DNA of 64,000 nucleotides, taken from positions 4,136-68,135 of the forward strand of contig NBNH01000013.1 in the NCBI GenBank assembly GCA_004379115.1. Direction: 5' to 3'. The notes beneath the pieces are model-generated. The model saw nothing but the letters and a program-made list of their open reading frames with translations, was not told the DNA's origin and searched no databases. The stretch is from Actinomycetales bacterium mxb001 (GTDB taxonomy: Bacteria; Actinomycetota; Actinomycetes; S36-B12). Positions 24,118-46,199 of the stretch are shown here, piece after piece. The translations under genes were made by a program, and so were the position numbers. Every line of letters begins with the position of its first letter. Position 1 is the stretch's first letter.

Positions 24118-24884
24118 CCCCCGACTGGTACGTCATCGTCGCGCTGTGCGTGGTCGCGGCGGCGGCCGGCTGGGTCGACGCCGTGAGCGGGGGCGGTGGC
24201 CTTCTGCAACTGCCCGCCTTGCTCATTGCCTTGCCCGGACAGTCGCCCTCCGTCTCGCTAGGGACCAACAAGATGTCGTCGATCCTGGGCACGTCGGCGG
24301 CGGCGCTGACCTACGGCCGAGTCGAGCGTCCGCGACTGGCAACAGCACTGCCTATGGCACTCGCGGCCTTCGGCGGCGCCGCGATCGGATCCCTGGTGGC
24401 CGTGCACTTACCTCCGGTGGTCTTCCGTCCGATCATCCTGGTGGCGCTCATCGTCGTCTGGTGCTTCATCGCGTTCCGCCGCGACCTGGGCCTGGTCGCA
24501 CGCGAGACGTCGCGGCGACGCCACCTGACCACGGCCATCCTCGGCGGGCTGGGGATCGGCTTCTATGACGGAGCCGTCGGTCCGGGCACCGGTTCTTTCC
24601 TTGTCGTGCTCCTCGTGGCCGCGCTGGGCTACACGTTCCTGCAAGCCTCAGCCACCGCCAAGATCGTCAACGTCGGCACCAACCTCGCGTCACTCATCGT
24701 CTTCGGGCTGGCCGGGTCGGTGCTCTGGATTCTCGGCCTGCTGATGGGGGTGTGCAATGTGGCCGGCGCCATCGTCGGTGCACGCATGGCGATGGCGAAG
24801 GGAAGCGGCTTCGTGCGCGTGGTGCTCCTTGCGGTGACCGCCGTGCTCATCGTCGTCCTGGCCGTGCAGATCGTGCGCGGCTGA
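24114..24884 (+). CDS. TSUP (TauE/SafE) family anion exporter
   Basis: 256 aa, about 8 hydrophobic helices in a Gly-rich 4+4 repeat layout. GTG start overlaps the HAD gene stop (GTGA). Confidence 0.75.
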   Translation: MTPDWYVIVALCVVAAAAGWVDAVSGGGGLLQLPALLIALPGQSPSVSLGTNKMSSILGTSAAALTYGRVERPRLATALPMALAAFGGAAIGSLVAVHLPPVVFRPIILVALIVVWCFIAFRRDLGLVARETSRRRHLTTAILGGLGIGFYDGAVGPGTGSFLVVLLVAALGYTFLQASATAKIVNVGTNLASLIVFGLAGSVLWILGLLMGVCNVAGAIVGARMAMAKGSGFVRVVLLAVTAVLIVVLAVQIVRG

Positions 24885-31332: not shown

Positions 31333-32217
31333 GTGAGCGAGCCCGTCGGCGTTCTCATCATCGACAAGCCGGTCGGAATCACCTCGCATGGCGTCGTTGC
31401 GCGCGTCCGCAAGGCGCTCGGAATCCGCAAGGTTGGCCACGCGGGAACGCTCGACCCGGATGCGACCGGGGTCCTTGTCGTAGGAGTGGGACCGGCAACG
31501 CGACTGCTCGGCTATCTCGCTGCCTCCGATAAGGAGTACACCAGCACCTTCGTGCTCGGTCAGTCCACGCTCACCGATGACGCGGCGGGCGACACCATCG
31601 CCTGGGCAGATGCCCACGAACTCACTCGAGATGAGATCGAGCACGCCATGCTCGCGTTGACGGGTGCGATCGAGCAGCGCCCGAGTTCGGTGAGCGCGAT
31701 CAAGGTCTCCGGCAAGCGTGCCTATGACCTCGTCCGGTCCGGTGAGGATGTCGAATTGGCGACCCGACCGGTCACGGTGTCCGCGTTCGATCTCCTCGAC
31801 GTGTGCGCCGAGGAGCGCCAGGGTCATCGCGTGATGGTCGCGAAGGTGCGGGTGGACTGCTCGGCGGGCACCTACGTGCGAGCACTTGCCCGCGATCTCG
31901 GCCAGGCACTGGGAGTCGGCGGTCATGTGGCGACCCTTCGTCGCACGCGCTCGGGAGCCTTCACCCTCGACGACGCCGTCGCCCTCGACGACGTGTCGAC
32001 GTCGAGTCGCCTCCTGCGTCCCGCCGAAGCTGCGCGGCGGACGCTACCCACCGTCGCCATCTCCAGCGATGCCGGCAGGCTGGCGCGCCACGGCGTCCAG
32101 CTGCCCTGGCCCGCTGATGCGGGAGCCGGACCGGTGGCCTTCCTCGACGGTGACGATCTTGTCGGCGTGGCGCAGGAGCGCTCGGGACGAACCGCTTGGT
32201 CGGTGGTCTTCGCCTAG
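31333..32217 (+). CDS. truB: tRNA pseudouridine(55) synthase
   Basis: 294 aa. Motifs IIDKPVGITSHGVV and catalytic Asp motif GHAGTLDPDATGVL. Confidence 0.9.
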   Translation: MSEPVGVLIIDKPVGITSHGVVARVRKALGIRKVGHAGTLDPDATGVLVVGVGPATRLLGYLAASDKEYTSTFVLGQSTLTDDAAGDTIAWADAHELTRDEIEHAMLALTGAIEQRPSSVSAIKVSGKRAYDLVRSGEDVELATRPVTVSAFDLLDVCAEERQGHRVMVAKVRVDCSAGTYVRALARDLGQALGVGGHVATLRRTRSGAFTLDDAVALDDVSTSSRLLRPAEAARRTLPTVAISSDAGRLARHGVQLPWPADAGAGPVAFLDGDDLVGVAQERSGRTAWSVVFA

Positions 32218-34427
32218 CGGGCGAGCGTGCCGCGCGCCGTCTCGGGTGACAGGTTGTCGACGAGGACGCGTACCCACTCGTCGCAGACCGCGTCGAGCGG
32301 AAATGATGCTGCGACCTGCCGCTGGGCCTCGCGAGCAGTTGCGTCCCATGCGCCAGACGCCACGGTGTCATGGATCGCTGCGGCCATCGTGGTGGGGTCG
32401 GCATGGATCCAACGTGTGTCGTAGATGGTGTCGGCACCGGGCCACGGCAGGAGTGCCGGGACGGCACCGGATGCCATCCCCTCGGCGGGTGCCAGGTGAA
32501 AGCTCTCGTCGTCGGACGTGGAGAGAACCCAACCCACGCGCCGCAGCCAGGCGGGTACGTCGCCACCGAATCCGTCGAACGACACTGCGCCACGCACGGA
32601 GGGATCATCGTGCAGGCGGGCGAAGAGCGCCTCGGTGTCTGCGCGCTCCTCGGGCTTGCGCCAGATCCACCAGTAATCCCAGGGCAGTTTGGACTTCACG
32701 GCCAGGCGGTATCGCCGATCACGACGTCGCAGGAGCGACAGCACCTCGAGGCCCAGATCGGGCCGCTTGCGCATGGGGGAGATGCCGATCATGCCGAGGG
32801 TGAACTCGACGCCGGGGAGCTTGGGCCGCGCGAACTGCGCTACGTCGACCCAATTGGGAATGACGACGATGCGGTCGACCGGCCAGCCGGTGCGCTCGGC
32901 GGTCAACTGCGCGTAGAAGGGGCTCACGCAGACGACCTGGTCGACGGCGTCGATGCGTACGTCGGAGAGCCAGCCTGCATCGAGCTCAAAGCGGTGCAAT
33001 CGAACGATCAAGCGCTGTCCGGGTCTCTTGTGGCGGCTGTACCAGACGATGTTGGGCCCGGCCCACTCGCAGATGATGACGTCCGCCCACTCGGCGAGGT
33101 CCTTGCTCACCTCTTCGTCGTGCGTCGTCAGGCTGCTCCACGGGTCGAGGCGCACCTCGACTCCGGGCACCGAGCGCAGGTGGTCGAGGAGTCGGCTGAA
33201 GAACTTCAGGTCGTGGCTCGCGACACCCACGCGCAAGGGGCGGTCGCGGTCGGCCAGAGCGGCAGGCTCGGAAGGGAAGGCGCGGGCCAGGAGCCCGGCA
33301 AGGCGATCGGCGGAGGCCACCATGCTGAAGGCCTCGGCGCTGGCCGTTGCCGCCGTAAGAGCGGCGGCGTAGACCGAAGGCTGGGTCATGACCTGGACGA
33401 TGGCGGCGACGACGTCGTTCTCGTCGGCGACGAAGAGCGGATAGTCCTCGCCGAGGAGGTGCTCGTGCATCGGCGTGCGGTTGAGTAGAGCGGGTACGCC
33501 AAGCGCACCGAATTCCAAGACCTTCGTCGACAGTTCGAGACTGGCGTCCATCTGCGGGGCGCGCCAGGAGAGGCCGAGATCGGCCGCTGCGGTGAGCTCC
33601 ATCGCCGCCTGCCGCGGCATGCCGCCGTGCCACACCACTCCCGGGCTAGCCTCCAGCGCCTCGCGCATCCGTCGCGACCAGTCAGGGTCATCGGGGACGT
33701 CATGGATCTTGTCGCCGATCATGTGGAGTTGAGCGTCGATTCCCTGCTCGGCCAGCAACGCCGGCAGGCGGGTCATGGGCAGGGTGTTCCACAAGGGTGC
33801 GAACTTGCCGGTGTAGACGAGTTGGATCGGGGTTGTTCGCCCTTCGAGTGCTGGGCGCGTGGGCAGGGCGAATGTCGGTTCGGGAACGACCGGGCTCCAC
33901 AGCACGGACCGGCCGCAGGCGGCGGGCACCATGGCCTCGAGCAGGTCGCGCAGTTCCTCGGTCTGGCAGAGCATGAAGCGGCTGGCCTCGGCTATGGCTT
34001 CGAGTTGCTCGAGGGCCTCGGGAGTGAACTCGAGCGGGGACTGCGGGATGTCGGTGAGGTAGGTCCACAAGCGGCCCGCCAGTGAACTGCTCGAAGCGGC
34101 CGTTACGAGGCGCAGCCCACGGACGACGACGAGATCAGCGGGCTCGGACGCATCGAGAGACTCGAGGATCCGCACTGCCTCGGGTGCGGACAGTGGGCTT
34201 CGTCCCACGGCCAAGGATTCGGTGAAGGGATCGACGACGCGAACACCGGTCAGTGATCGGAGTGGATCGACCAGGCGGGGAGTCTCGATCGGGGCCTTGA
34301 GAAGGACACGCACCGACACTCCGCACCGAGACAGCGCCTCGGTCATGGACTGCACCCAGATAGCGGACCCGTCGAGGATGTTGAGGTTGACGTCGCCGTA
34401 GACCAAAGCGGTGAGTGGGCGCGTCAC
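32214..34427 (-). CDS. tandem double GT-B (GT4-like) glycosyltransferase, candidate polymerising enzyme
   Basis: 737 aa in two halves, about 1-370 and about 400-737, each of GT-B length. The C-terminal half has the GT4 EX7E-type motif SDDESFHLAPAEGMASGAVP. GTG start overlaps the upstream gene's stop (GTGA). Confidence 0.6.
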   Translation of the reverse strand: MTRPLTALVYGDVNLNILDGSAIWVQSMTEALSRCGVSVRVLLKAPIETPRLVDPLRSLTGVRVVDPFTESLAVGRSPLSAPEAVRILESLDASEPADLVVVRGLRLVTAASSSSLAGRLWTYLTDIPQSPLEFTPEALEQLEAIAEASRFMLCQTEELRDLLEAMVPAACGRSVLWSPVVPEPTFALPTRPALEGRTTPIQLVYTGKFAPLWNTLPMTRLPALLAEQGIDAQLHMIGDKIHDVPDDPDWSRRMREALEASPGVVWHGGMPRQAAMELTAAADLGLSWRAPQMDASLELSTKVLEFGALGVPALLNRTPMHEHLLGEDYPLFVADENDVVAAIVQVMTQPSVYAAALTAATASAEAFSMVASADRLAGLLARAFPSEPAALADRDRPLRVGVASHDLKFFSRLLDHLRSVPGVEVRLDPWSSLTTHDEEVSKDLAEWADVIICEWAGPNIVWYSRHKRPGQRLIVRLHRFELDAGWLSDVRIDAVDQVVCVSPFYAQLTAERTGWPVDRIVVIPNWVDVAQFARPKLPGVEFTLGMIGISPMRKRPDLGLEVLSLLRRRDRRYRLAVKSKLPWDYWWIWRKPEERADTEALFARLHDDPSVRGAVSFDGFGGDVPAWLRRVGWVLSTSDDESFHLAPAEGMASGAVPALLPWPGADTIYDTRWIHADPTTMAAAIHDTVASGAWDATAREAQRQVAASFPLDAVCDEWVRVLVDNLSPETARGTLAR

Positions 34428-36022
34428 GATGCGCTCCAGAGCGCGGCGTCGCTGGGGCGCGCGCGAGCGGACATGCCCGCGATCCGTTCGACGAGCAGGT
34501 CCGCGATGGCGTGTGGATCGGTGATCTCGACCTGGGCGGCGACGAGCGGGCAGCTGGCCGCGAGCGAGAGGTCGTCACGGGTCCCCGCGCCATGGGTCAC
34601 CACCACGCCGATGCCGTGCTCGGCCAGGACGGCGTGAGCGCGTCCGGCAAGAGGTGCGCTCACGAGGACCTCTCGTGGTCGCCAGGACTGGAGCAGGATG
34701 GCGTCGACATCGGGGTCGGTGAGCACGAGCGAGACGTCCCAGCACGCCTTGGGGTGGGCCCGGAGCCCGAGACGGTGGGACAGGTCGTCGAGCGCGACGG
34801 GAACCGATGCGTTGAGCAGGATCTCGCGCAGGACGAGACGACGTTCGTCGTCGCCGAGCGGAACCCGTGCTGCGGCGATGGCGGCGACGAGGTCGGTGTC
34901 AGCATCGACCGTGACGCGAGCCCATGAGGAGCGCGGGAGCAGGCGGTCGAGATCGACGTCGGTGGATCCCAGCAGTCGACGTCCCGACGCCAGTGTGCCG
35001 AGGCTTCCGGCCGATCCGCCGACCATGGTGGGGGCGACGCGCAGCGGCGATGCGATCCCGAAGGCCGAACTCGCGAGCGCAGCGCGCCGGGCCGGCACGA
35101 CGGGATAGCGCGGGTCCGGGGTGATCGTGTGGATGCCCGCACCGTGGAGAGCGTGGGCCAGGGCCTGGATGAGTGATCGATCGGCGAGCGGCACGCGGGA
35201 ATGGGTGAGGGGATCGGTGCCGACGATGACGGCGCGGTCGCCGACTCCTGCACCGGCCATCGGCCAGGCGGCGGGGTCGATGCCCGGATTCCACGGCGTA
35301 CCGCGCGATGACCCGGGGCCATCGAGGATGAGGTCGCACTGAGACGCCAGGGGTTCGAGGAAGGCCGTGTGGGCGGGCGATGTCGTGCGCAGGAGCACCA
35401 CGGGGATGCCGCGCTCGCGTGCTGCGTCGACGAGGCGCTGCGCCGCGATCTGGCGATCAGCGGCCGCGGGATCTCCGAGGAAGGACCACGGTTGGCCCGG
35501 CAACGCGGCTGCCGAGTCGATGACGACGACGTCGGCGCCGACGGCGCTGACGATCTCGGCGGCCTCGTGGGGCAGCGCCGAGGTCACGGCCGCGTAGGGA
35601 GACCACGCAGTCGCCAGTTCTTCGTTCAGCGCGCCGACGATGGTGAACGCCGCATCCGGGCGCGCAGACGCACGCGGTAGCAGGAGGCGAGCGGCATCCA
35701 GATCGAGTACTTCGTCGCGGCGCGTGCGCGTGACCGGGGTCGATGCCCCGGATCCGCGTCGAGACTTGCGCAGGCGCCAGACGCGCCACAGGTCGCGGGG
35801 GAGGAGGACCAGGCGTCGAGGACTGCGTGCCGCCTCGACGAAGAGCGAGCCCACCGTGTACTTCGCGCTGCGCTCCATGCGCTCCAGGGCGCGTTCGGCG
35901 CGTTCGGCGCGGGCCTCGGCCTGACGCAACTGCGACCGCAATCGAGCGCTATCCGTCGAAGGACGTCCCTCGGCGTCGTCGGGAGCGTCGCCCGGGGCAG
36001 TGTCGGCGAGCGGCTCGCTCAT
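34424..36022 (-). CDS. hypothetical polysaccharide-locus protein: N-terminal coiled coil plus CgeB/DUF3880-like region (tentative)
   Basis: 532 aa. LRSQLRQAEARAERAERALERMERS is followed by YTVGSLFVEAARSPRRLVLLPRDLWRVWRLRK. Translationally coupled on both sides (ATGA and GTGA overlaps). GC3-rich frame. No catalytic motif recognised. Confidence 0.4.
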   Translation of the reverse strand: MSEPLADTAPGDAPDDAEGRPSTDSARLRSQLRQAEARAERAERALERMERSAKYTVGSLFVEAARSPRRLVLLPRDLWRVWRLRKSRRGSGASTPVTRTRRDEVLDLDAARLLLPRASARPDAAFTIVGALNEELATAWSPYAAVTSALPHEAAEIVSAVGADVVVIDSAAALPGQPWSFLGDPAAADRQIAAQRLVDAARERGIPVVLLRTTSPAHTAFLEPLASQCDLILDGPGSSRGTPWNPGIDPAAWPMAGAGVGDRAVIVGTDPLTHSRVPLADRSLIQALAHALHGAGIHTITPDPRYPVVPARRAALASSAFGIASPLRVAPTMVGGSAGSLGTLASGRRLLGSTDVDLDRLLPRSSWARVTVDADTDLVAAIAAARVPLGDDERRLVLREILLNASVPVALDDLSHRLGLRAHPKACWDVSLVLTDPDVDAILLQSWRPREVLVSAPLAGRAHAVLAEHGIGVVVTHGAGTRDDLSLAASCPLVAAQVEITDPHAIADLLVERIAGMSARARPSDAALWSAS

Positions 36023-37104
36023 GCGGTCTCTCGGGCATCAAGCCAGTCGAGGATCACATGAGCAATTCGCTCACCGGAGCGGCCATCCCACAGGGGCGGT
36101 GTCATGCGCGACTCGATGCCATCGTCGAGGACGGCGTCGAGAAGGGCAAGAAGGTTGTCGGCCGAGGCGAGTCGATTGGTCCCGTGGGTGATCGTGATCG
36201 GCCGCTCCGTGTTGGGGCGCAGCGTCAGGCACGGCACCCCCAGCATGGTGGTCTCCTCTTGAACGCCGCCCGAGTCGGTGATGACCGCGGCACTGCCGCG
36301 GACGAGCGAGATGAAGTCGAGGTAGCCGAGAGGTTCCACCACGTGAATGCGCGGGTGATCGGCGATGCCAAGTGCTTCGAGGACGGCGCGGCCGCGTGGG
36401 TGAAGAGGCAGGACGATGTCGGCGCGGGAGGCAGCCGACTGCATGAGGGCAACGAGGGCACCGGCGGATTCGGGATCGTCGACATTGCCCGGTCGGTGCA
36501 GCGTGGCCACGAGGTATCGCTCCGGGAGTCCGAGGGACTCGCGTGCTCGCTGGGCGTCGAGGCGATCGAGGTTGGCGAGCAGGGTGTCGATCATGGGATT
36601 GCCGACGAGGTGAATGCGGTCGGGATCCACCCCCTCACGAGCGAGGTGGGCAATGGCGTCGGGACTGGTGCAGAAGAGCAGGTCCGACAGGCGGTCCGTG
36701 ACGATGCGATTGATCTCCTCAGGCATGGACATGTCGAAACTGCGCAGCCCAGCCTCGACGTGTGCCACGGGAAAGCCCAGCTTGGCGGCGGTGACGGCTG
36801 CCGCCAGGGTGGAGTTGACGTCGCCGTACACGATGACGAGTTCGGGACGTGTCTGGAGGAACTCCTCCTCGAGTCCGACCATGAGAGCTGCCGTCTGCTG
36901 TGCGTGGGTGCCTGAGCCCACCCCGAGATTGATGTCAGGTCGGGGCAGGTCGAGTTCGCGGAAGAAGATCTCGGACATGCGGTCGTCGTAGTGCTGTCCT
37001 GTGTGCACCAGGCGCTGACGTACCCCGGCCGCAGCCAAGGCGGCGATGACGGGAGCGGCCTTCGGGAAATTGGGGCGCGCTCCGGTCACGTGGAGCAGGG
37101 TCAT
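36019..37104 (-). CDS. wecB: UDP-N-acetylglucosamine 2-epimerase (non-hydrolysing)
   Basis: 361 aa. Motifs VHTGQHYDDRMS, VYGDVNSTLA, DSGGVQEETT. Confidence 0.85.
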   Translation of the reverse strand: MTLLHVTGARPNFPKAAPVIAALAAAGVRQRLVHTGQHYDDRMSEIFFRELDLPRPDINLGVGSGTHAQQTAALMVGLEEEFLQTRPELVIVYGDVNSTLAAAVTAAKLGFPVAHVEAGLRSFDMSMPEEINRIVTDRLSDLLFCTSPDAIAHLAREGVDPDRIHLVGNPMIDTLLANLDRLDAQRARESLGLPERYLVATLHRPGNVDDPESAGALVALMQSAASRADIVLPLHPRGRAVLEALGIADHPRIHVVEPLGYLDFISLVRGSAAVITDSGGVQEETTMLGVPCLTLRPNTERPITITHGTNRLASADNLLALLDAVLDDGIESRMTPPLWDGRSGERIAHVILDWLDARETA

Positions 37105-37154
37105 CGCTGCCTTCCTGTGGGCGTCGCGAGCCGGTCGGGGTGGTGGGCGACCTC

Positions 37155-37160
37155 TACTAT
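37155..37160 (+). promoter_or_regulatory. candidate -10 hexamer TACTAT in the divergent wecB / GT4 spacer
   Basis: This is the only AT-rich hexamer in the 75-nt spacer. It fits the actinobacterial TANNNT form and ends about 20 nt before the ATG at 37180, ahead of the GAGGAGG SD. No -35 element recognised. Confidence 0.25.
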
Positions 37161-37179
37161 CCCAGACGAGGAGGTGCCC

Positions 37180-38847
37180 ATGGCACGGCTGCGCGCCCTG
37201 CGGCGGGGCGCTGATGCGGCCCGTCGGCTACCCCTCGCGCTGACGGGAGCGGCTCGGCGGTTCGCGGAGGATCCGGCCCGAGGACGGGCCGCCCTCGAGC
37301 GCGCCTGGCCGGCCGTGGCCCGTGGGCCACGCGGCACCGATCCGGCCGCGCTCGTTGATCGAGCCGTGGCCGAGGACCGCCTGGTTGACGCCGAGGTCGC
37401 CCTGGCCCTTGTCGCCATGGACGATCCCCAGCGCGCATCGTGCGAGTTGGCCGTACGCCGGCTGCGTGGCGACATCATCGACGTCCTCGCCCAGCCCGTG
37501 GATGATGCGCGCGGACGTCGCGTGCAGCGACTCGCGCGCCGCCAGGCCGACGTCCTCACGTCACCCCTGCCCACCTGGGCCCGTCAGCCGCTGTCAACGG
37601 CGCCGCCCGCATCGCACACCCCGCCTGCGCGCATCCTGCACGTCGTCACCAACTCGCTTCCCCTCACCCAAGCCGGTTCGACGATCCGCACGCATCGGCT
37701 CGTGCAGGCGCAGCGTTCGCGTGGCTGGGATGCGCGCGCTGTTACCCGACCCGGCTATCCGGTGACTCATGGGGATCTCGATGCGACCTCAATCGAGTGG
37801 GTCGAGGACGTGCCCTATCTGCGCCTTCTTCCGGCGGTGATGCCGTCCGAGACCTCCATGGCGCAGGCCTATCGCGAGCTCCTTGCCCGGGTCGTCGACG
37901 ACGTGCGCCCGCATCTGCTCCACGCGGCCTCCGACCACGCGAATGCGCGGGCGGCCCTCGAGGTCGGTCGACGCGCCGGCATTCCCGTGGCCTATGAGGT
38001 GCGTGCCTTCCATGAGGACACGTGGTTGTCGCGCCACGGTGGCGAGGCGGCGCGCGAGCGCGATGTCTACCGATGGACCCGAGAGCGCCACACCGAGGTG
38101 ATGCTCGCCGCCGACCTGGTAACGACGCTCGGCGAGGCCATGCGCGCGGACATCATCGAGCGGGGCGTGGAGCCTGATCGGGTGATCGTCGTGCCGAACG
38201 GCGTCCCGCTGACATACCTCGACGACGTGTGCGAGTCGGCGGATGCTCGCGCCGCGCTCGGACTGGACCGTGAGGGCTTCTGGGTCGGCAGCGTCGCCAC
38301 CTTGCACGATGCTGAAGGACTCGACGTCATGCTCGATGCGCTGGCGATCCTGCGTGCCGAGGGGATCGATGCGCGTGCCTTGCTCGTCGGCGACGGCCCG
38401 GCTCTCCCGCGACTGCGCGATCGCGCACGCGAACTCGGAGTTCCGCTGGTGGCGCCCGGTCGCGTCCCGGTGTCGGAGGTGCGCGGGTGGTTCGACGCCC
38501 TCGACGTCTTCGCCTACCCGCGGCTCGACACCCCGCTCAATCGCGATGTCACCGGTCTGAAGCCGCTGGAGGCACAGGCGCGGAGACGACCGGTCGTCGG
38601 CACCGACCTGCCGGCTGTCGTCGAGGTGCTGGCCCCCGGCGCCCCGCTCGTCCCCGCGGGTGACGCGGACGCCCTCGCCCGTGCCCTGGGCGGCCTCGTC
38701 GACCCCGCCTCTCGGCGTCGGGTGGGTGAGGAGGGTCACGCATGGGTGGCGGCGCATCGCACGTGGCCTTCCGTGACTGCCCGCTACAGCACCGCGTACG
38801 CTGCTCTCGGCGTTCCCACCGAGGGAAATCCACCGTCGGGAGCATGA
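37180..38847 (+). CDS. GT4-family glycosyltransferase with an about 190-aa N-terminal extension
   Basis: 555 aa from the ATG at residue 64 of track ORF 36991..38847, with a GAGGAGG SD. The GT-B core starts at ILHVVTNSLPLTQAGSTIRTH. C-terminal motif GLKPLEAQARRRPVVGTD. Confidence 0.65.
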   Translation: MARLRALRRGADAARRLPLALTGAARRFAEDPARGRAALERAWPAVARGPRGTDPAALVDRAVAEDRLVDAEVALALVAMDDPQRASCELAVRRLRGDIIDVLAQPVDDARGRRVQRLARRQADVLTSPLPTWARQPLSTAPPASHTPPARILHVVTNSLPLTQAGSTIRTHRLVQAQRSRGWDARAVTRPGYPVTHGDLDATSIEWVEDVPYLRLLPAVMPSETSMAQAYRELLARVVDDVRPHLLHAASDHANARAALEVGRRAGIPVAYEVRAFHEDTWLSRHGGEAARERDVYRWTRERHTEVMLAADLVTTLGEAMRADIIERGVEPDRVIVVPNGVPLTYLDDVCESADARAALGLDREGFWVGSVATLHDAEGLDVMLDALAILRAEGIDARALLVGDGPALPRLRDRARELGVPLVAPGRVPVSEVRGWFDALDVFAYPRLDTPLNRDVTGLKPLEAQARRRPVVGTDLPAVVEVLAPGAPLVPAGDADALARALGGLVDPASRRRVGEEGHAWVAAHRTWPSVTARYSTAYAALGVPTEGNPPSGA

Positions 38848-38880
38848 CCCGACGCCTGCGTCCGTAATCCGAGGACGCAC

Positions 38881-40161
38881 GTGATGAAGGATGACGTGAC
38901 TATGGCCCGCGACCTCGTGGTGATCGGCCTGGGATACGTGGGCCTGCCCCTCGCCCAGGAGGCGACTCGCTCCGGTCTGTCCGTCACGGGATTCGATGTC
39001 TCGCAGCGCGTGGTCGAGGGCCTGCGTGCTGGGCGCTCGCACGTCGACGACCTGTCTGACGACGACATCGCCGACATGCTCGCCCGCGGCTTCGAGGCAA
39101 CGTCCGACCCGTCGGTCATCGCCGACGCCGATGCCGTGGTGATCTGCGTGCCCACGCCGCTTACTCCCGAGGGCGGCCCCGATCTCGGTCCCGTCCTGGG
39201 AGCGACTCGCGCGATCGCTGCGCACCTGCGCCCCGGTCACCTGGTCGTCCTCGAGTCCACGACCTACCCGGGCACCACCGACGATGAGGTGCGTCCCCTG
39301 CTGGAGGCCGGGGGATTGGTTGCCGGGTCCGACTTCCACCTGGCCTTCAGTCCTGAGCGCATCGATCCGGGCAATCCGACCTTCGGTATGCGCAACACGC
39401 CCAAGGTCGTCGGTGGCCACACGCCCGCGTGCACGGATGCCGCTGCCGAGTTCTACGGACGCTTCGTCGATACCGTCGTGCGCGCACGTGGCACCCGCGA
39501 GGCCGAGATGGCCAAGCTCCTCGAAAACACGTACCGTCACATCAACATCGCATTGGTCAACGAAATGGCCCGTTTCTGCCACGAGCTCGGGATCGACCTG
39601 TGGGATGTCATCGCCGCTGCGCGCAGCAAGCCGTTCGGCTTCCAGGCGTTCTACCCGGGCCCGGGGGTCGGTGGTCACTGCATCCCGATCGACCCCAACT
39701 ACCTGTCCTACCAGGTGCAGGCGAAGCTCGGCTATCCCTTCCGCTTCGTTGAGTTGGCTCAGGAGATCAACGCCGGCATGCCTGCCTACGTCGTGCGTCG
39801 CATACAGGACATCCTCAACGAGGACGGCAAGGCGTTGAGGGGATCGCGTGTGCTGCTCCTGGGTGTCACCTACAAGCCCGATATCGCCGACCAGCGCGAG
39901 TCGCCAGCCAAGCCCATCGCTCAACAGCTCATCGACAAGGGCGCTCACGTGACCTTCCACGACCCCCACGTGCAGGCCTGGCACCTCGGCGCGACGACAC
40001 TCGAGGTCGTGCCCGACCTCGATATCGCCCTTGAAGGAGCGGATGTCTGCGTCCTGCTGCAGAACCACGCGGCCTACGACGTCGATGCCCTCGCGCGCCG
40101 TGCATCGCAGTTCTTCGATACGCGCGGCGTCACCACCGACGACAAGGCGGTGCGGCTCTGA
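38881..40161 (+). CDS. NAD-dependent nucleotide-sugar 6-dehydrogenase (UDP-ManNAc/UDP-GlcNAc dehydrogenase type)
   Basis: 426 aa. Rossmann motif VVIGLGYVGLPLA and catalytic Cys in GVGGHCIPIDP. The start could be 38881, 38884 or 38902. Confidence 0.8.
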   Translation: MMKDDVTMARDLVVIGLGYVGLPLAQEATRSGLSVTGFDVSQRVVEGLRAGRSHVDDLSDDDIADMLARGFEATSDPSVIADADAVVICVPTPLTPEGGPDLGPVLGATRAIAAHLRPGHLVVLESTTYPGTTDDEVRPLLEAGGLVAGSDFHLAFSPERIDPGNPTFGMRNTPKVVGGHTPACTDAAAEFYGRFVDTVVRARGTREAEMAKLLENTYRHINIALVNEMARFCHELGIDLWDVIAAARSKPFGFQAFYPGPGVGGHCIPIDPNYLSYQVQAKLGYPFRFVELAQEINAGMPAYVVRRIQDILNEDGKALRGSRVLLLGVTYKPDIADQRESPAKPIAQQLIDKGAHVTFHDPHVQAWHLGATTLEVVPDLDIALEGADVCVLLQNHAAYDVDALARRASQFFDTRGVTTDDKAVRL

Positions 40162-40163
40162 TC

Positions 40164-41045
40164 CTGGTCGAGGGGCAAGAGCGAGACGCCCGGCAGGTAG
40201 CGGCGGAGTACGGCCTCCGGCCCGTCAATAGCAGGCCGGGCTTCTTCTCCTATCTGCGCAGCCTCTGGCAGCGCAGAACCTTCATCCGGGCCTTCGCCAA
40301 GGCGAGCGTCGACAAGCAGAACACCAAGAGTCGACTCGGCCAGTTCTGGCAGGTCATGGACCCCGTCCTCACCATGGCCCTGTACTGGTTCCTCTTCGGC
40401 TTCCTCATGGGCGGACGCGGAAGCGTCGAGAACTACACGGGATTCCTCGCCGCCGGCGTGTTCACGTTCGCGCTGATCCGTCAGTCGGTGACGGCGGGAT
40501 CCCGGTCGATCTCCGGCAACGAGGGGCTTGTGCGCTCGATTCACTTCCCTCGCGCGGTCCTGCCGATCGCTGTCGTGATGAAGCAACTGCGTGTCTTCTA
40601 CTACGCCCTGCCCATCATGATCGTCATCCTGCTCATCACCGGTGAGCCCATCACCTGGCAGTGGCTGCTGGCCCCCGTCGCACTGCTGCTCATCGTGATG
40701 TTCAGCATGGGCATGGCGCTGGTCATGGCGCGCATCGTGGCGACCGTGCAGGACATCTCGGAGATCCTGCCCTACCTGCTGCGCATCTGGGGCTACATGT
40801 CGGGGGTGATGATCCCGATCGCGGACCGACTCGATCGTCTGGGTGTTCCTCCGTGGGCGACGTTCATCATCGAGGTCAATCCGGGCACGGTCTTCTTGAA
40901 CTGCATGCGCGATGCGCTCATGGACTCGTACTTCTCGCCCGGCGGGTGGATCAACTGGGCTCTCGCCGTCGGCTGGGCGCTGGTGATGTTGCCCTTCGGC
41001 CTGTGGTTCTTCTGGCGCGCGGAGGACCAGTATGGCCGAGGCTGA
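40164..41045 (+). CDS. ABC-2 type polysaccharide/teichoic-acid exporter permease (TagG/Wzm-like)
   Basis: The track ORF starts at the ATG at 40356. However, the conserved N-terminus (FFSYLRSLWQRRTFIRAFAKASVDKQNTKSRLGQFWQV) is encoded in-frame upstream, where there is no ATG, GTG or TTG. Provisional CTG start at 40164, 3 nt after the dehydrogenase stop. The start coordinate is uncertain. Confidence 0.65.
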   Translation: MVEGQERDARQVAAEYGLRPVNSRPGFFSYLRSLWQRRTFIRAFAKASVDKQNTKSRLGQFWQVMDPVLTMALYWFLFGFLMGGRGSVENYTGFLAAGVFTFALIRQSVTAGSRSISGNEGLVRSIHFPRAVLPIAVVMKQLRVFYYALPIMIVILLITGEPITWQWLLAPVALLLIVMFSMGMALVMARIVATVQDISEILPYLLRIWGYMSGVMIPIADRLDRLGVPPWATFIIEVNPGTVFLNCMRDALMDSYFSPGGWINWALAVGWALVMLPFGLWFFWRAEDQYGRG

Positions 41046-41967
41046 TGACGACTTCGACGGCGTCGACTTTTCGGATGACATCGAGCTCGAGGGCGTCGAG
41101 CCACCAAAGCCCGGCGATCCCAACGCGCCGATCAAGGTCGTGGTCGACGACCTGCACATCCTGTATCGGGTCTGGACACCGCCGGAGGGTCCACCGCCGG
41201 AGGATGCCCGGTGGTGGCTGCGGCTGAGGGCGCGGCGTCCCATCTCGGTCAAACGCGAGGTCCACGCGCTTCGAGGGGTGTCCTTCATCGCGCGCCAAGG
41301 TGATGCCATCGGCGTCATCGGCAAGAACGGGGCGGGCAAGTCGACCCTCATGCGCGCCATCGCCGGCCTCCTTCCCGCCAACGAGGGGGCGGTCTACGCC
41401 GACGGTCAGCCGACCATGCTCGGGGTGAGCTCGGCCTTGATGCAGGCACTCCCCGGGTCGCGCAATGTCGAGCTCGGGCTCCTTGCCCTAGGACTCACCC
41501 CCGCCGAGGTCAAGGAGCGCTATCAGAGCGTGGTCGACTTCAGTGGTATCGGCAATGCCATTCACATGCCGATGAACACCTACTCGTCGGGCATGTCGGC
41601 GCGACTCAAGTTCGCCATCGCGTCAGCGGTGACGCACGAGATCTTGCTCATCGACGAGGCGCTCTCGACCGGCGACGGAGAGTTCGTCAAGCGCAGCAGT
41701 CAACGCATCCAGCAACTGCGCGATGATGCCGACACCATTTTCCTGGTGAGCCACTCCATGGGGGCCATCCGCTCGGCGTGCAACCGAGTGATCTGGCTCG
41801 ACCAGGGCAAGATCGTCGCTGACGGCGATCCCGAGGAGGTTGTCCGCGCCTACGAGCAGCGCTTCGGACTGCAGACCAAGAAAGCCCTGCGCGAACGGCG
41901 CAAGAAGCGCAAGGAGGCCAACGAGCAGGCTGCTATCGAACTGGCCTCGGAGCCGGGCAGCGACTGA
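41032..41967 (+). CDS. polysaccharide/teichoic-acid ABC exporter ATP-binding protein (TagH/Wzt-like)
   Basis: 311 aa. Walker A GKNGAGKST, signature YSSGMSARLKFA, Walker B LLIDEALSTGD. Overlaps the permease gene by 14 nt. No C-terminal carbohydrate-binding domain, only a short Lys/Arg/Glu tail. Confidence 0.85.
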   Translation: MAEADDDFDGVDFSDDIELEGVEPPKPGDPNAPIKVVVDDLHILYRVWTPPEGPPPEDARWWLRLRARRPISVKREVHALRGVSFIARQGDAIGVIGKNGAGKSTLMRAIAGLLPANEGAVYADGQPTMLGVSSALMQALPGSRNVELGLLALGLTPAEVKERYQSVVDFSGIGNAIHMPMNTYSSGMSARLKFAIASAVTHEILLIDEALSTGDGEFVKRSSQRIQQLRDDADTIFLVSHSMGAIRSACNRVIWLDQGKIVADGDPEEVVRAYEQRFGLQTKKALRERRKKRKEANEQAAIELASEPGSD

Positions 41968-41968
41968 C

Positions 41969-43045
41969 GTGCGCGTCCTGGTCGTGGCCACGGTCCAACA
42001 TCCGTTGGATGCGCGGGTCGTCGAGCGCGAGATCGGCGCGCTCCTGGAGGCCGGTCACTCGGTCACCCTGGTAGCGGCTTTCGCCGACGTCGGTGTGCCT
42101 CCGCCGCCCGGTGTTCTCCCCGTCGACGTCCCTCGTTCCTCAGGTCGGCGCCGGTGGGCTTCCTTAGCGATGGCGCGTCGCATCCTTCGACGCGAGGCAC
42201 CCCGTCACGATGTCGTCCTCCTGCATGACCCCGAGCTTGTTCCGGCCATGATCGGTATCCGGCACCCCTGCGTCGTCTGGGACATCCACGAAGACACAGC
42301 CGCCGCCATCGGCATGAAGTCATGGATCCCGAGACCCCTGAAGCAGCCGGCGATGGCCGTCGCTCGGAGCATCGAGCGCTATGCGGAAGGCCACATGCAC
42401 CTAATCCTCGCGGAGACGGCGTACGCCGACCGGTTCGCGCACCCCCACCCCGTCGTCCTCAATACGACGTCGGTACCTGATCAGGTAGCCGTCAGCGGTC
42501 GTGGTCGTGCTGTCTACGTGGGCACGCTCACGCGCGAGCGTGGGGGCGATGACCTCATCGCCGTCGGAGTGCTGCTCCGCCCCGACATCTCCATGGAAGT
42601 GATCGGCAATGCGCACGGCGACCTCGCACAGCGGCTGCGTGACGCCGACCATCGCCGAGAGGTGGCGTGGCGCGGCTTCGTCCCCAACGCCGAAGCGCTT
42701 CGATCAATCGAAGGTGCCACGGTGGGCCTGTCGCTCTTGCATGACCAGGCGAACTATCGCCACTCGATGCCCACGAAGCTCCTGGAGTACCTCGCCCGGG
42801 GCGTTCCCTTCGTCTCCACCCCGCTGCCGCTGGCACGTGACCTGGCCGAAGCGTCGGGAGCCGGAGTGATCGTGCCCTTCGGCGATCCAGGTGCCGCGGC
42901 GGAGGCGGTGCGCGCGCTCAACGAGGACGATGAGCGACGTCACGCGATGGCGGAGTCAGGTCGTCGCTGGGTGCGAGATAACGCCGACTGGCGGCGCGAT
43001 GGCGCTGCGTTTGTCGCTCAACTCGAGGCTTGGGCGCGCGCCTAG
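41969..43045 (+). CDS. GT4-family glycosyltransferase
   Basis: 358 aa from the GTG at residue 44 of track ORF 41840..43045, 1 nt after the ATPase stop. C-terminal motif HSMPTKLLEYLARGVPFVST. Confidence 0.7.
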   Translation: MRVLVVATVQHPLDARVVEREIGALLEAGHSVTLVAAFADVGVPPPPGVLPVDVPRSSGRRRWASLAMARRILRREAPRHDVVLLHDPELVPAMIGIRHPCVVWDIHEDTAAAIGMKSWIPRPLKQPAMAVARSIERYAEGHMHLILAETAYADRFAHPHPVVLNTTSVPDQVAVSGRGRAVYVGTLTRERGGDDLIAVGVLLRPDISMEVIGNAHGDLAQRLRDADHRREVAWRGFVPNAEALRSIEGATVGLSLLHDQANYRHSMPTKLLEYLARGVPFVSTPLPLARDLAEASGAGVIVPFGDPGAAAEAVRALNEDDERRHAMAESGRRWVRDNADWRRDGAAFVAQLEAWARA

Positions 43046-44115
43046 TCCTCGTTGGAAGCGGCAGAGTCGGAGTCCAGCAGCCGGGTGAGGGCTGCGCCGG
43101 CGGCGGCGGCGACCGCGTCAGGCGACGGAACTCCAGGATCCGCCGCGTCGGCCGCGCACTCCAGGTCGTCCATGTCGCCGTGCACCGCGACACTGCAGGT
43201 GCGCAGGTCGGCGAGATCCTCGGTGGACCACGCATGGACGCTCGAGCGGATGCCGGCCGGAAGTCCGAGGCGGGGTCCGCGATCGGCACGATCGGTCCAG
43301 CCGTCGCGGATGAGGGCGCGGTGCCAGGCGCGGATCTCGCGCCGACCGTGCCCAGCCGCGCGCGCGACGAGATTCAGCCCGTAGATGGCGTAGGTCTCCG
43401 CCCCCGTGAGCGAGACATTGGCGCGGTCATCGGGGATGGCCGGCGGCTCGACCGGAAGCGCGTCGATGCCCGCGGCAGCGCGGAACCGGCGCCAGGTCTC
43501 GGCGGGGTCGGCGGAGCCGGTGGGAACGGTGACCAGCGACACCGACCGTGCGACGTCCTGCCAGCGACGGACGAGATCGGGGTAGCGGTAGGCCCGCCAG
43601 AAGGCCCGGGCGAGTTCGGTCTCGTAGATCCGGCTCTGGCGTTCCTCGTCGCGCAACGCCAGGTAGGCGTCGTACGCCTCGAAGTTGCCATTGCGCATGT
43701 GCTGCTGCCAGGAGCTCGGCAGCACCCGGTCGAGCGCACGTGCGGTGATGACGACATCGACCGGCGCTGGCGCGAGCGCATCCACGACCGCACGCACGCC
43801 CGACGGTCGGAGCACCGACATCGCCTCGGCGGACAAGATCACGTCTCCGGGGGCATCGGCGACCGCACGCAGGAGCGAGGCGGCATCGGAGCCGTCCTGC
43901 TGAGTCCAGGCGTCGTCTTGGAGTCCGATCTCTCCGGCCGATCGAACAAGATCGATCAGGCCCGGTACGTGGTTGTGGTCGACTCGGCCTCGGGTGCGAA
44001 TCGGATACATGCCTGCAGGAATGTCACCCGACCGGACGAGCGACTGGAGCACGCGCTGGAGGTAGGTCGTCGCCGTCTTGCGCGGACCGATGTGCAGGAC
44101 GACGCGTTGCGCCAT
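43042..44115 (-). CDS. sulfotransferase-fold protein (paralogue 1; degenerate PAPS loop)
   Basis: 357 aa. N-terminal loop LHIGPRKTATTYLQRVL resembles the HIPKTGGTS-type 5'-PSB but has Ala for Gly. VVITARALDRVLPSSWQQHMRNG. Paralogue of 45111..46199. Confidence 0.45.
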   Translation of the reverse strand: MAQRVVLHIGPRKTATTYLQRVLQSLVRSGDIPAGMYPIRTRGRVDHNHVPGLIDLVRSAGEIGLQDDAWTQQDGSDAASLLRAVADAPGDVILSAEAMSVLRPSGVRAVVDALAPAPVDVVITARALDRVLPSSWQQHMRNGNFEAYDAYLALRDEERQSRIYETELARAFWRAYRYPDLVRRWQDVARSVSLVTVPTGSADPAETWRRFRAAAGIDALPVEPPAIPDDRANVSLTGAETYAIYGLNLVARAAGHGRREIRAWHRALIRDGWTDRADRGPRLGLPAGIRSSVHAWSTEDLADLRTCSVAVHGDMDDLECAADAADPGVPSPDAVAAAAGAALTRLLDSDSAASNED

Positions 44116-44117
44116 GT

Positions 44118-45101
44118 CTAGCCCCGGCGTACGCGCGAGAGCAGGGAACGCGCAAGCTCGCGAGGGTGCGTTCCGTCGCGTCCAGCGCGGTAGGCCGCCG
44201 CTCCACCCGCCGCGGCCGCAGCGGCACTCATGACCAGGGCGCCCCCGGGAAGCCGACGGTGCACCATCACGGCCACGCTGGCGAAGACTGCGGCGCCGAT
44301 GAGTGGCGCCAGCACGGCCGTCGACACCTCGGGGCCCTTCGTCGCGATGGGGGAGGGCGTGACTGAAGCGGACGGTGGGCCGGCGAGCCCGGCCTTACGT
44401 CGACCGATGGGCGTGTCGACGTCGTAGCCGTGCTGCACGAGCCACGGCGCGCACTCGGCCTCGACGGCGGCGACCTCCTCGGGCGTGAGGGTGTCGCGCC
44501 AGGCTCCCTCGCGTCCGTCAGTGATGTGGTTGGCGGTGACGCGAAGGTCGGGGTCGACGCCCGAGGCGCGGGACTCCCAGACACGCTCCTGCTGCTGCTC
44601 CAGACTGACGAGGGCATCGATCTCCGCCACGCGCTCGGGTGTGACCGGAACATCGAGGAACGCCGCCAGGTCGCGGATGAGGTTGGGGACGTCATCGCGG
44701 AAATCCTCGTAGCGCCCGACCCACAGATTCTTGCGTGCACGCCAGAACGTGTCGCCCTTGAGCTCGCGGCGGACGATCAGTTTGCTGTTCTGCGGCCCGC
44801 GCTTGGGGTTGCCCGGCTTGAAGCGACCCTTGCGGAAGAGTGATGCGACGACGTCGCGAGGATCGCGGTAGGTGTAGAGGTAGCGCACGCCGGTGTCGGG
44901 GAAGTCTGACTCCTTGAGCGATCCGCGGTAGTGGATCTTGGCCAGGAGCAAGTCGTGGGGATCTGCTGCGGCGGCCGGGAACGCATCGGGCTCGACCCCC
45001 CGCGGGTTGCGCAGCCCGGGCTGGCCGTCGACGAGTTGGCGGGTGATCTGCCACACGAGGGTGGACCCGGAACGATGCATTCCGCACACCAGCAGCAGCA
45101 C
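44118..45101 (-). CDS. PAPS-dependent sulfotransferase with C-terminal hydrophobic anchor
   Basis: 327 aa. 5'-PSB loop VCGMHRSGSTLVWQ and 3'-PB motif YTYRDPRDVVASLF. C-terminal hydrophobic stretches AVLAPLIGAAVFASVAVMV and ALVMSAAAAAAGGAAA. Confidence 0.75.
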   Translation of the reverse strand: MLLLVCGMHRSGSTLVWQITRQLVDGQPGLRNPRGVEPDAFPAAAADPHDLLLAKIHYRGSLKESDFPDTGVRYLYTYRDPRDVVASLFRKGRFKPGNPKRGPQNSKLIVRRELKGDTFWRARKNLWVGRYEDFRDDVPNLIRDLAAFLDVPVTPERVAEIDALVSLEQQQERVWESRASGVDPDLRVTANHITDGREGAWRDTLTPEEVAAVEAECAPWLVQHGYDVDTPIGRRKAGLAGPPSASVTPSPIATKGPEVSTAVLAPLIGAAVFASVAVMVHRRLPGGALVMSAAAAAAGGAAAYRAGRDGTHPRELARSLLSRVRRG

Positions 45102-45110
45102 CCGAGCAGT

Positions 45111-46199
45111 CTAGGCGCCTCGCGTCGGGACATTCGCGAGGTAGGCCATGGCGGCCCCGGCGGCCCGCGCCACTTCGTCGGCGTCAGGGCCGTCGCCCAC
45201 CGGTGCCTCGGGATCGACGAGCAGATCGGATTCGGGCCCGACGAGCAGGGCGTGGCTGGAGCGCAGAACCTCGGCATCGTCGTCGGCCCAGGCGCGGATG
45301 CGAGGGAGCCAGGTGCGCGGGATGCGCACGGGCGAACCGCGATCGGCCCGCGAGACGAAGGCGTCGCGAACGATGCGGCCGCGGAGCTTGCGGATCTCAG
45401 CGTCATCGGCCTTGACGCCGTCGACCTGCCGATTGAGGCCGGCCAGAACCAGGACCTCGGGTTCGGTCAGTCCCACGTTGGCCTCGAGATCGTCGATCTG
45501 CGGGGGTGTGTCGGGTAGCACGGTGCCGAGGTCGAGGGCGCGGCTGAATCGGTGCCAGAGTTCGTGGGGAGCCGCTCCGCGCCGCGGCACGGTGACGACG
45601 GTGACGGTGCGCGCGAAGGGCGCCCAGCGCTCGACCAGCGTGCCGATGGCGTAGGCGCGCCAGAACGTCTGCTCAGGATCGGCATCCCATCGGGCCGCGC
45701 GTTCGCGGGCATCGCCCTCGCCGCGCCGATCGGCTTGCTGGGCGAGGTAGCGAGCGAAGGGAGTGGAGCGACCATTGCGGATGTGCTGCTGCCACGAACT
45801 CGGCAGCACCCGGCCGAGGTCGCGGGCCGTGATGATCACGTGCGTGTTGGGAACGCCGAGGGACGACACAAGTCGCTCGGCGGCGGCGGAATTGATGACC
45901 GAGATGGCCTCACCAGACACGATGGCGGTGCCATCCCATTCGCGAACCTTGCGGGTGAGTCCCTCCCAGGCGCCCTCCTGGGCGCGGGCCTTGGCCTCGG
46001 GAACCCACGGAAACGACGACGTGCCGAGGAGACCGTAGGCGGCGGCCTCGTGGTTGTAGACCTCGCGTCGGCCGTGCAGCCGCAGGGGGTAGAGCACGCC
46101 TTCGCGCTTGAGGTTGCCGGACAGGCGCGACAGCACACGCTGCAGGTACGTCGTACCCGACTTCTGCGTGCCGATGTGCAGCAGCAGGCGCTCCGCCAC
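45111..46199 (-). CDS. sulfotransferase-fold protein (paralogue 2)
   Basis: 362 aa. LHIGTQKSGTTYLQRVL (K-S-G-T-T PAPS-loop-like) and VIITARDLGRVLPSSWQQHIRNG. Shares FWRAY, VTVP and ANVGLT blocks with 43042..44115. Confidence 0.5.
   Translation of the reverse strand: MAERLLLHIGTQKSGTTYLQRVLSRLSGNLKREGVLYPLRLHGRREVYNHEAAAYGLLGTSSFPWVPEAKARAQEGAWEGLTRKVREWDGTAIVSGEAISVINSAAAERLVSSLGVPNTHVIITARDLGRVLPSSWQQHIRNGRSTPFARYLAQQADRRGEGDARERAARWDADPEQTFWRAYAIGTLVERWAPFARTVTVVTVPRRGAAPHELWHRFSRALDLGTVLPDTPPQIDDLEANVGLTEPEVLVLAGLNRQVDGVKADDAEIRKLRGRIVRDAFVSRADRGSPVRIPRTWLPRIRAWADDDAEVLRSSHALLVGPESDLLVDPEAPVGDGPDADEVARAAGAAMAYLANVPTRGA

Follow-up and report, generated by a model that had tools for sequence, protein, structure and literature searches.

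A three-gene operon of predicted sulfotransferases beside an ABC-transporter-dependent glycopolymer locus in freshwater Actinomycetota

Is a surface polysaccharide of freshwater actinobacteria sulfated inside the cell before it is exported? The question is raised by three neighbouring genes on contig NBNH01000013.1 of Actinomycetales bacterium mxb001, within a 64-kb stretch that was analysed whole and is called the window here. The genes adjoin a set of genes for glycan synthesis and ATP-binding cassette (ABC) export, and the polysaccharide made and exported by these adjacent genes is probably sulfated. The central gene encodes a sulfotransferase of the type that uses 3'-phosphoadenosine 5'-phosphosulfate (PAPS), and the two genes on either side of it encode paralogues (A and B) from a very large family that has no Pfam model. 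The operon consists of the following genes, with protein lengths in amino acids (aa):

45111..46199, minus strand: paralogue A, 362 aa; first gene of the three-gene operon, member of the HIGxxK[ST]GTT family, predicted sulfotransferase, no Pfam model.
44118..45101, minus strand: central SULT-like PAPS-dependent sulfotransferase (predicted activity), 327 aa, PF00685; catalytic domain about residues 1-235, Pro/Ser linker, C-terminal hydrophobic hairpin.
43042..44115, minus strand: paralogue B, 357 aa; same family as paralogue A, with a K-T-A-T-T loop; optional across species.

The three consecutive minus-strand genes had been pointed out in an earlier, sequence-only reading of this DNA, and they are present as open reading frames (ORFs) of 362, 327 and 357 aa separated by spacers of 9 nt and 2 nt. 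All three have a guanine plus cytosine (GC) content at third codon positions of 0.83-0.84 and the codon-position GC pattern of real genes in a genome of 68% GC. Since three independent ENA metagenome contigs carry the same three genes with 99-100% identity, the arrangement is not an assembly artefact. A search of GTDB contigs, with one genome per species, gave 430 loci that encode a member of the flanking family. In 36 species, all of them uncultured freshwater Actinomycetota or 'Candidatus Nanopelagicales' known as metagenome-assembled genomes (MAGs), an orthologue of the 362-aa protein (53-87% identity) is encoded beside ribF. The central gene comes after the 362-aa gene in every ribF-linked locus where the contig continues (33/33). 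Of the 30 informative species loci, 19 have the 357-aa paralogue and 11 lack it, and in the latter the gene of a GT1-family glycosyltransferase lies directly after the central gene. From these counts, paralogue A and the central enzyme form the conserved core, while paralogue B is facultative. The loop motifs of the ribF-linked loci are constant: K-S-G-T-T in 36 of 36, K-T-A-T-T in 20 of 20 and, in the central protein, H-R-S-G-S-T in 34 of 34.

The central protein is, by its motifs and its predicted structure, a bona fide PAPS-type sulfotransferase, with an activity that is predicted. Its match to Pfam Sulfotransfer_1 (PF00685) covers profile positions 5-250 of 255 at E 1.6e-13 and scores 51.1 bits, the cut-off being 22, and a sequence search of the PDB returns retinol dehydratase and mammalian SULTs, the identity to solved structures being 13-19%. 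Its AlphaFold2 model has a predicted local distance difference test score (pLDDT) of 85, and the top 50 Foldseek matches of the model in the PDB are all sulfotransferases or retinol dehydratase, with probability 1.00 and query-normalised template modelling (TM) scores of 0.38-0.51. The defining features of PAPS sulfotransferases are a PAPS loop, a catalytic Lys/His pair and an RxxxDxxxS 3'-phosphate motif, and the PAPS site is structurally a strand-loop-helix with Lys or Arg together with a strand-turn-helix with RxxxDxxxS (PMC11625862). Both structural elements are found in the motifs and the model of the central protein, which begins with MLLLVCGMHRSGST and also contains MHRSGST and YTYRDPRDVVASL. 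The PAPS loop H9-R10-S11-G12-S13-T14 is preceded by strand 2-7 and joined to helix 10-24, and strand 72-78 leads to R79, D83 and S87 with helix 81-93, which places RxxxDxxxS in a strand-turn-helix. The residues R10, S11, G12, S13, T14, K55, H57, R79, D83 and S87 are invariant among 18 homologues of the central protein. With SULT1/SULT2, retinol dehydratase and Teg12, which belong to PF00685, it shares the fold, the phosphosulfate loop, RxxxDxxxS, K-x-H and a late G-x-x-G-x-W-R/K motif; it is unlike them in the loop Arg (H-R-S-G-S-T) in place of Lys, in the C-terminal membrane hairpin, in its bacterial origin and in its position in a glycan locus. A precedent for the Arg, and for the Ala of paralogue B, is provided by Stf0 (PDB 1TEX), an active actinobacterial PAPS sulfotransferase with Ala and Arg in its phosphosulfate loop (PMC11625862); Stf0 itself acts on trehalose for sulfolipid-1, and no detectable sequence match to it was found here. 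Towards the C-terminus the Kyte-Doolittle profile of the central protein peaks at residues 258-282, and the model has a low-confidence Pro/Ser linker followed by hydrophobic helices at 261-280 and 285-309, the hydrophobic character of both being kept across the central family. Because the protein has no signal peptide and ends in these helices, its catalytic domain should face the cytoplasm while being tethered to the membrane. The description of this protein as a clear sulfotransferase with HRSGST, a 3'-phosphate-binding motif and a C-terminal anchor therefore holds in every part.

The flanking proteins are paralogues of each other, as had been proposed: they are 36% identical over 345 aa (E 3e-56) and share the blocks LHIG..K(S/T)(G/A)TTYLQRVL and ITAR.L.RVLPSSWQQH.RNG. 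The longer form in which the second block had been quoted, beginning VIITAR, is found in the 362-aa copy, whereas the 357-aa copy reads VVITAR. The AlphaFold2 model of paralogue A has a pLDDT of 92.9 and a predicted TM score of 0.90. In this model, strand 4-10, the loop K13-S-G15-T-T and helix 16-32 form a strand-loop-helix, and strand 119-125, R126 and helix 128-141, which carries S134, form a strand-turn-helix with the spacing R-x7-S. The modelled layout of K13, R126 and S134 is that of the structural definition of the PAPS site in PMC11625862, and marks a putative PAPS site. K13, T16, T17, S95, E97, T124, R126, S134, W136, Q137 and Q138 are invariant in an alignment of 30 family sequences, R126 also in 150, and E97, at the end of strand 91-96, is a candidate for the catalytic base of the family. 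In paralogue B the position of Gly15 is occupied by Ala, and on account of this K-T-A-T-T loop the copy had been thought possibly non-catalytic. A dead paralogue B is not favoured as the default, because the Ala-containing motif is strictly conserved among its 20 orthologues, because the protein retains all 26 invariant columns of the family alignment (A1) and because Ala also occurs in the loop of active Stf0.

The family to which the two proteins belong is large. A profile search of 1.84 billion representatives yields 12,494 family clusters, at 50% identity, with E <= 1e-3, and 1,470 with E <= 1e-30. The members are named 'hypothetical protein' in the sources or, in UniRef, 'Sulfotransferase family protein', and a homologue on a Cereibacter plasmid is annotated by the Prokaryotic Genome Annotation Pipeline as containing a sulfotransferase domain. 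Tandem fusions of two family domains, 750-850 aa in length, also occur (P0248, P0261, P0266, P0272, P0274, P0292 and P0306); most have an intact K-T-G-T-T loop in both halves, which hints at members working in pairs, like paralogues A and B. In the MAG species that bear the ribF-linked locus, a third family member lies between glnA and glnE (L007, 10001-11173; also L047-L087, 17 loci besides L007/L008). It is about 40% identical to both paralogues and has a K-T-G-T-T loop, and its context has no obvious link to glycans. In the cultured halophilic actinomycete Haloactinopolyspora alba (L010, 6118-13369), a family member directly follows an 875-aa GT2/GT1 fusion glycosyltransferase and is near a Sulfotransfer_2 gene and three methyltransferases (FkbM-type), an arrangement that looks like a glycan-modification cluster.

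The strongest functional clue for the flanking family is the presence of a member beside cysD-cysNC, which are genes of PAPS synthesis, in a similar glycan and exporter locus, in two related lineages. In Actinobacteria bacterium UBA959 (L082, 43.7% GC), the syntenic series GT737-wecB-GT4-dehydrogenase-permease-ATPase-GT1 is followed by a GT2, a family member, a methyltransferase, a UDP-glucose-type dehydrogenase, cysD and cysNC. The family member is 37% identical, has a K-S-G-T-T loop and the stretch TARDLGRVLPSSWQQ, and is located about 2.2 kb upstream of cysD-cysNC; cysD matches PAPS_reduct (E 3e-48) and the cysNC fusion matches GTP_EFTU and APS_kinase (E 1e-64). In the second lineage (L063, 54.5% GC), cysNC and cysD divergently adjoin a family member, with GT1, ATPase and permease genes downstream. 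The cysD-cysNC pair is common in the lineage of the window, usually between a SpoU-type methylase and pheS; the order in L094 and L095-L105 is rplT, SpoU-type methylase, a protein of about 270 aa, cysD, cysNC, pheS and pheT. One contig with the pair, L105, is compositionally near the window (GC 0.683, tetranucleotide r 0.974). Five CysNC contigs were looked up and none is from an assembly among the genomes listed with the trio or duo of operon genes. A CysNC from the same ENA sample as a window protein (ERZ27275609) is on a contig of 60.8% GC and was set aside as belonging to another organism.

The operon forms one end of an island of 14 kb (window 32214-46199) that is located between truB and ribF and comprises three transcription units. 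Core chromosomal genes surround it: dxr, ispG, proS, infB, rbfA and truB precede the island, and ribF, rpsO, pnp, dapB, thyX, dapA and RNase J follow it. It thereby interrupts an array, infB-rbfA-truB / ribF-rpsO-pnp, that is conserved apart from this insertion. Its other genes are:

41969..43045, plus strand: GT1-family glycosyltransferase, 358 aa (Pfam Glycos_transf_1); 358 aa also on L002 and L003.
41032..41967, plus strand: ABC exporter ATPase of TagH/Wzt type, 311 aa (ABC_tran); TagH models align to residues 73-299.
40356..41045, plus strand: ABC-2 permease, Wzm/TagG-like (ABC2_membrane; Wzm/KpsM models).
38881..40161, plus strand: nucleotide-sugar dehydrogenase (TIGR03026, E 1e-128, above cut-off).
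37180..38847, plus strand: GT4-family glycosyltransferase, 555 aa (Pfam Glyco_trans_4_4 and Glycos_transf_1); 555 aa also called on L001.
36019..37104, minus strand: WecB/MnaA, non-hydrolysing UDP-GlcNAc 2-epimerase (TIGR00236, 297.5 bits against a cut-off of 210; Epimerase_2, E 1e-101).
34424..36022, minus strand: conserved island protein, 532 aa, with an N-terminal Arg/Glu-rich coiled-coil-like stretch; 37-71% identity in syntenic loci.
32214..34427, minus strand: candidate polymerase, 737 aa (Glyco_trans_1_4 at 220-348, Glyco_transf_4 at 446-530).

An ABC-2 permease, a TagH/Wzt-like ATPase, glycosyltransferases and nucleotide-sugar genes together make up the pattern of an ABC-transporter-dependent glycopolymer locus. 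The adjacent exporter of the sequence-only reading is borne out, together with the glycosyltransferases, by matches to Pfam and exporter models, and so is the attachment of the three genes to a locus of this kind, for which sulfation in the cytoplasm before export is the natural reading. The best named models for the dehydrogenase are those of UDP-ManNAc dehydrogenase, with scores below their cut-offs. Because WecB is encoded beside this UDP-ManNAc-dehydrogenase-like enzyme, the polymer probably contains N-acetylmannosaminuronic acid (ManNAcA) and would then be teichuronic-acid-like. The 532-aa protein has no match in Pfam, NCBIfam or the PDB, and could act in chain-length control or in assembly. 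The reading frame of the permease stays open for about 65 codons (40158-40355) ahead of its listed start, in a stretch that resembles the usual permease N-terminus and has no ATG, GTG or TTG; a CTG at 40158 shares bases with the TGA that ends the dehydrogenase gene, and the true start is likely to be near 40158 with a non-canonical start codon. The island looks old in the lineage, since its GC content equals that of its flanks and the 362-aa gene has ribF as its neighbour in almost every one of the 36 species loci; a recent horizontal acquisition was considered and is unsupported, for the same GC content and for the conserved position across species. Farther away, downstream of proS, the window encodes a membrane protein of the TauE/SafE ('sulfite exporter') family (24114-24884, plus strand; Pfam E 3e-39), which is probably a generic anion exporter.

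In the mechanism proposed here, the GT1 and GT4 enzymes would build the polymer on a lipid carrier, on the cytoplasmic side of the membrane, and the ABC transporter of TagGH/Wzm-Wzt type would export it. Before export, the three-gene operon would decorate it with sulfate from PAPS. The central SULT-like enzyme would act while held at the membrane by its C-terminal hairpin, and paralogue A, joined by paralogue B where present, would be a divergent sulfotransferase, each of them most likely sulfating a different hydroxyl or sugar. On balance, it is likely that the polymer is sulfated in the cytoplasm, at two or three positions and while still lipid-linked, and is then exported by the ABC transporter. 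Several results weigh against this. The 64-kb window has no gene for ATP sulfurylase, adenosine 5'-phosphosulfate (APS) kinase or another PAPS-related function, and a PAPS-synthesis gene is likewise absent from the 10 kb around each of the 36 ribF-linked loci. Neither the priming phosphoglycosyl transferase (TagO/WecA) nor the LytR-CpsA-Psr (LCP) ligase is among the island genes or the other window genes scanned; both may lie elsewhere in the genome, and for this reason the linkage of the polymer to the wall is something that we infer.

The predicted fold of paralogue A fits P-loop NTPases about as well as sulfotransferases, and on this basis the central enzyme might be the only sulfotransferase, with the flanking paralogues being P-loop-fold proteins such as a kinase or other nucleotide-binding enzyme, a scaffold, or a chain-length or assembly factor. 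The top Foldseek matches of paralogue A are GPN-loop GTPases and small kinases (E 1e-3, all TM <= 0.31), and the sole sulfotransferase among the top 50 matches listed is 4gbm (CurM domain), in 19th place with probability 0.96 and TM 0.31. Structure prediction, which had been proposed as a check on all three proteins, thus gives a sulfotransferase fold for the central one and, for paralogue A, does not discriminate a sulfotransferase from a generic P-loop fold. The loop sequence argues for a sulfotransferase, however, as K-[ST]-G-T-T has its Lys three residues before T-T, like the K-S-G-T-T of SULT enzymes, and is a different pattern from the Walker A motif G-x4-G-K-[ST]. Single-sequence searches of the PDB return nothing for paralogue A and only designed armadillo repeats, taken as spurious, for paralogue B; with the family profiles A1 and A4, designed helical repeats are returned together with 3rnl, a 'Sulfotransferase', at a non-significant E of 0.39. 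When the flanking family is compared with the central family by hhalign, a 22-column loop region only is aligned, with a probability of 1%, so that the two families cannot be called homologous. The Pfam evidence for the two window proteins consists, for the 362-aa copy, of Sulfotransfer_3 (17.6 bits against a cut-off of 27, E 0.0049, residues 9-153) and Sulfotransfer_1 (12.3 bits against 22); the 357-aa copy has no Pfam match, and neither paralogue has an NCBIfam match above cut-off. It is these two families, rather than the Sulfotransfer_2 of which the loop had seemed reminiscent, that are weakly matched. Among 30 close and 93 distant relatives, on the other hand, the only Pfam families matched are Sulfotransfer_3 (18 and 18 members, with the best E, 2.9e-9, in some distant members) and Sulfotransfer_1 (4 and 4), and no kinase or NTPase family appears among the matches of these 123 proteins. 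The families matched are thus all of the sulfotransferase kind, and the window copies themselves are below cut-off or without a match. The match to Sulfotransfer_3 (PF13469, of which NodH is the characterised member according to PMC11625862) covers both PAPS-site motifs. The flanking family is unlike Sulfotransfer_3 and NodH in the loop, K-[ST]-G-T-T versus the R-x-G of NodH, in a long insertion between helix 1 and strand 2, and in an extra C-terminal helical domain (about 246-354 in the model of paralogue A), besides the scores below cut-off. This extra domain would suit a P-loop protein of another function, as would the helix serine S134, which is not conserved family-wide, being often Ala in the tandem-fusion members examined and less than 90% conserved in broader alignments. 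The adjacency of family members to cysD-cysNC in two lineages speaks against such a function. Altogether, P-loop proteins of another kind are an unlikely identity for the flanking paralogues, for which the name sulfotransferase is well supported but not established.

Alternatively, sulfate might not decorate the repeat units but cap the non-reducing end, stopping chain growth and licensing export in the manner of WbdD and Wzt in E. coli O9a, a possibility that had been raised from the sequence. Terminal modifications are frequent in ABC-transporter-dependent pathways (PMC9445017), and the 532-aa island protein with its coiled-coil-like N-terminus could serve as a ruler. In Aeromonas salmonicida, an orphan ORF with a sulfotransferase domain lies beside wzt in the ABC-2 O-antigen cluster, and no sulfate was reported in the repeat unit (PMC4483657), a possible parallel for terminal or sub-stoichiometric sulfate. 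The exporter ATPase of the island, however, is a protein of 311 aa, of which the TagH models cover the sequence up to residue 299, and it has no carbohydrate-binding extension at the C-terminus to read a cap. Two or three different sulfotransferases exceed the needs of a single cap, and the gain or loss of paralogue B between species is expected of decoration. A cap is accordingly disfavoured and has little chance of being the right explanation. The acceptor may also be a glycolipid, a quinone or a small metabolite, as for the mycobacterial Stf enzymes, in which case the three genes would be mere neighbours of the glycan genes. The operon is a transcription unit of its own, convergent with the exporter operon (the stop of the GT1 gene overlaps that of paralogue B), many solitary homologues occur outside glycan loci in Streptomonospora, Actinomadura and other actinomycetes and MAGs, and the third family member between glnA and glnE is found in the same MAG species. 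Nevertheless, the operon is linked to the island in all 36 species, and both L082 and L063 have their family member and cysD-cysNC beside or among glycan and exporter genes. The membrane tether of the central enzyme suits a lipid-linked acceptor, though that could be a glycolipid as well. An acceptor other than the exported polymer is improbable, and sulfation of the exported polymer is the reading retained here.

Cyanobacteria, rhizobia and some marine Gram-negative bacteria are established producers of sulfated surface polysaccharides, and polysaccharide clusters that include sulfotransferase genes are known from cyanobacteria and from Gram-negative bacteria. With the systems for teichuronic acid and for wall teichoic acid export (TagGH), the island has in common WecB, a sugar dehydrogenase, GT4 and GT1 glycosyltransferases and a TagH-like ATPase, and the TuaC and TuaD models give weak matches. 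It is unlike those systems in that a priming enzyme and a ligase were not found in it, and we know of no sulfation step in either of them. The capsule cluster of Vibrio sp. KMM 8419 is likewise an ABC-transporter-dependent polysaccharide locus with several sulfotransferases, and the combination of PAPS genes and sulfotransferases in one cluster has been named the hallmark of sulfated polysaccharide synthesis (PMC11641403). Of the loci studied here, those of the relatives L082 and L063 show this combination, while the window locus itself is without cysDNC. The Vibrio polymer is a Gram-negative capsule in which sulfate is chemically proven and other sulfotransferase families are used, whereas the present locus is from an actinobacterium. 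The wps-1 cluster of Actinoplanes missouriensis is closer in kind, being an actinomycete polysaccharide cluster with two predicted sulfotransferases, for which sulfation is likewise a prediction, raised in a 2026 paper with verification pending (PMC13390465). It differs in belonging to the Wzx/Wzy pathway, in having sulfotransferases of Gal/GlcNAc type and heparan-sulfate type, and in serving a sporangium matrix polysaccharide.

Literature searches returned nothing relevant that ties sulfotransferases to Nanopelagicales, and nothing relevant on sulfated teichuronic acid; in Actinomycetota, a sulfated surface polysaccharide is so far a recent, unverified prediction only (PMC13390465). What is new here is a locus for an ABC-exported envelope polymer, probably containing ManNAcA, in which a tethered SULT-like enzyme is joined by one or two proteins from a family without a Pfam model. 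The most far-reaching form of the proposal is put forward tentatively: the HIGxxK[ST]GTT proteins may be a very large family of polysaccharide sulfotransferases beyond curated models (about 12,500 clusters) which, together with the tethered enzyme, would equip the abundant planktonic Actinomycetota of fresh water with a wall polymer that is teichuronic-acid-like and multiply sulfated. If true, this would be, as far as the literature search went, the first sulfated envelope glycopolymer shown in an actinobacterium. A review of the field states explicitly that sulfotransferases in bacterial polysaccharide clusters are under-detected (PMC11625862), and the flanking family may explain this gap; the proposal also provides a testable function for this huge set of proteins, mostly annotated as hypothetical. 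Found in at least 36 species, the locus points to an envelope polymer of very abundant lake bacteria that is acidic and sulfated and which, if present, could bear on cation binding, on interactions with phages and grazers, and on organic sulfur in lakes.

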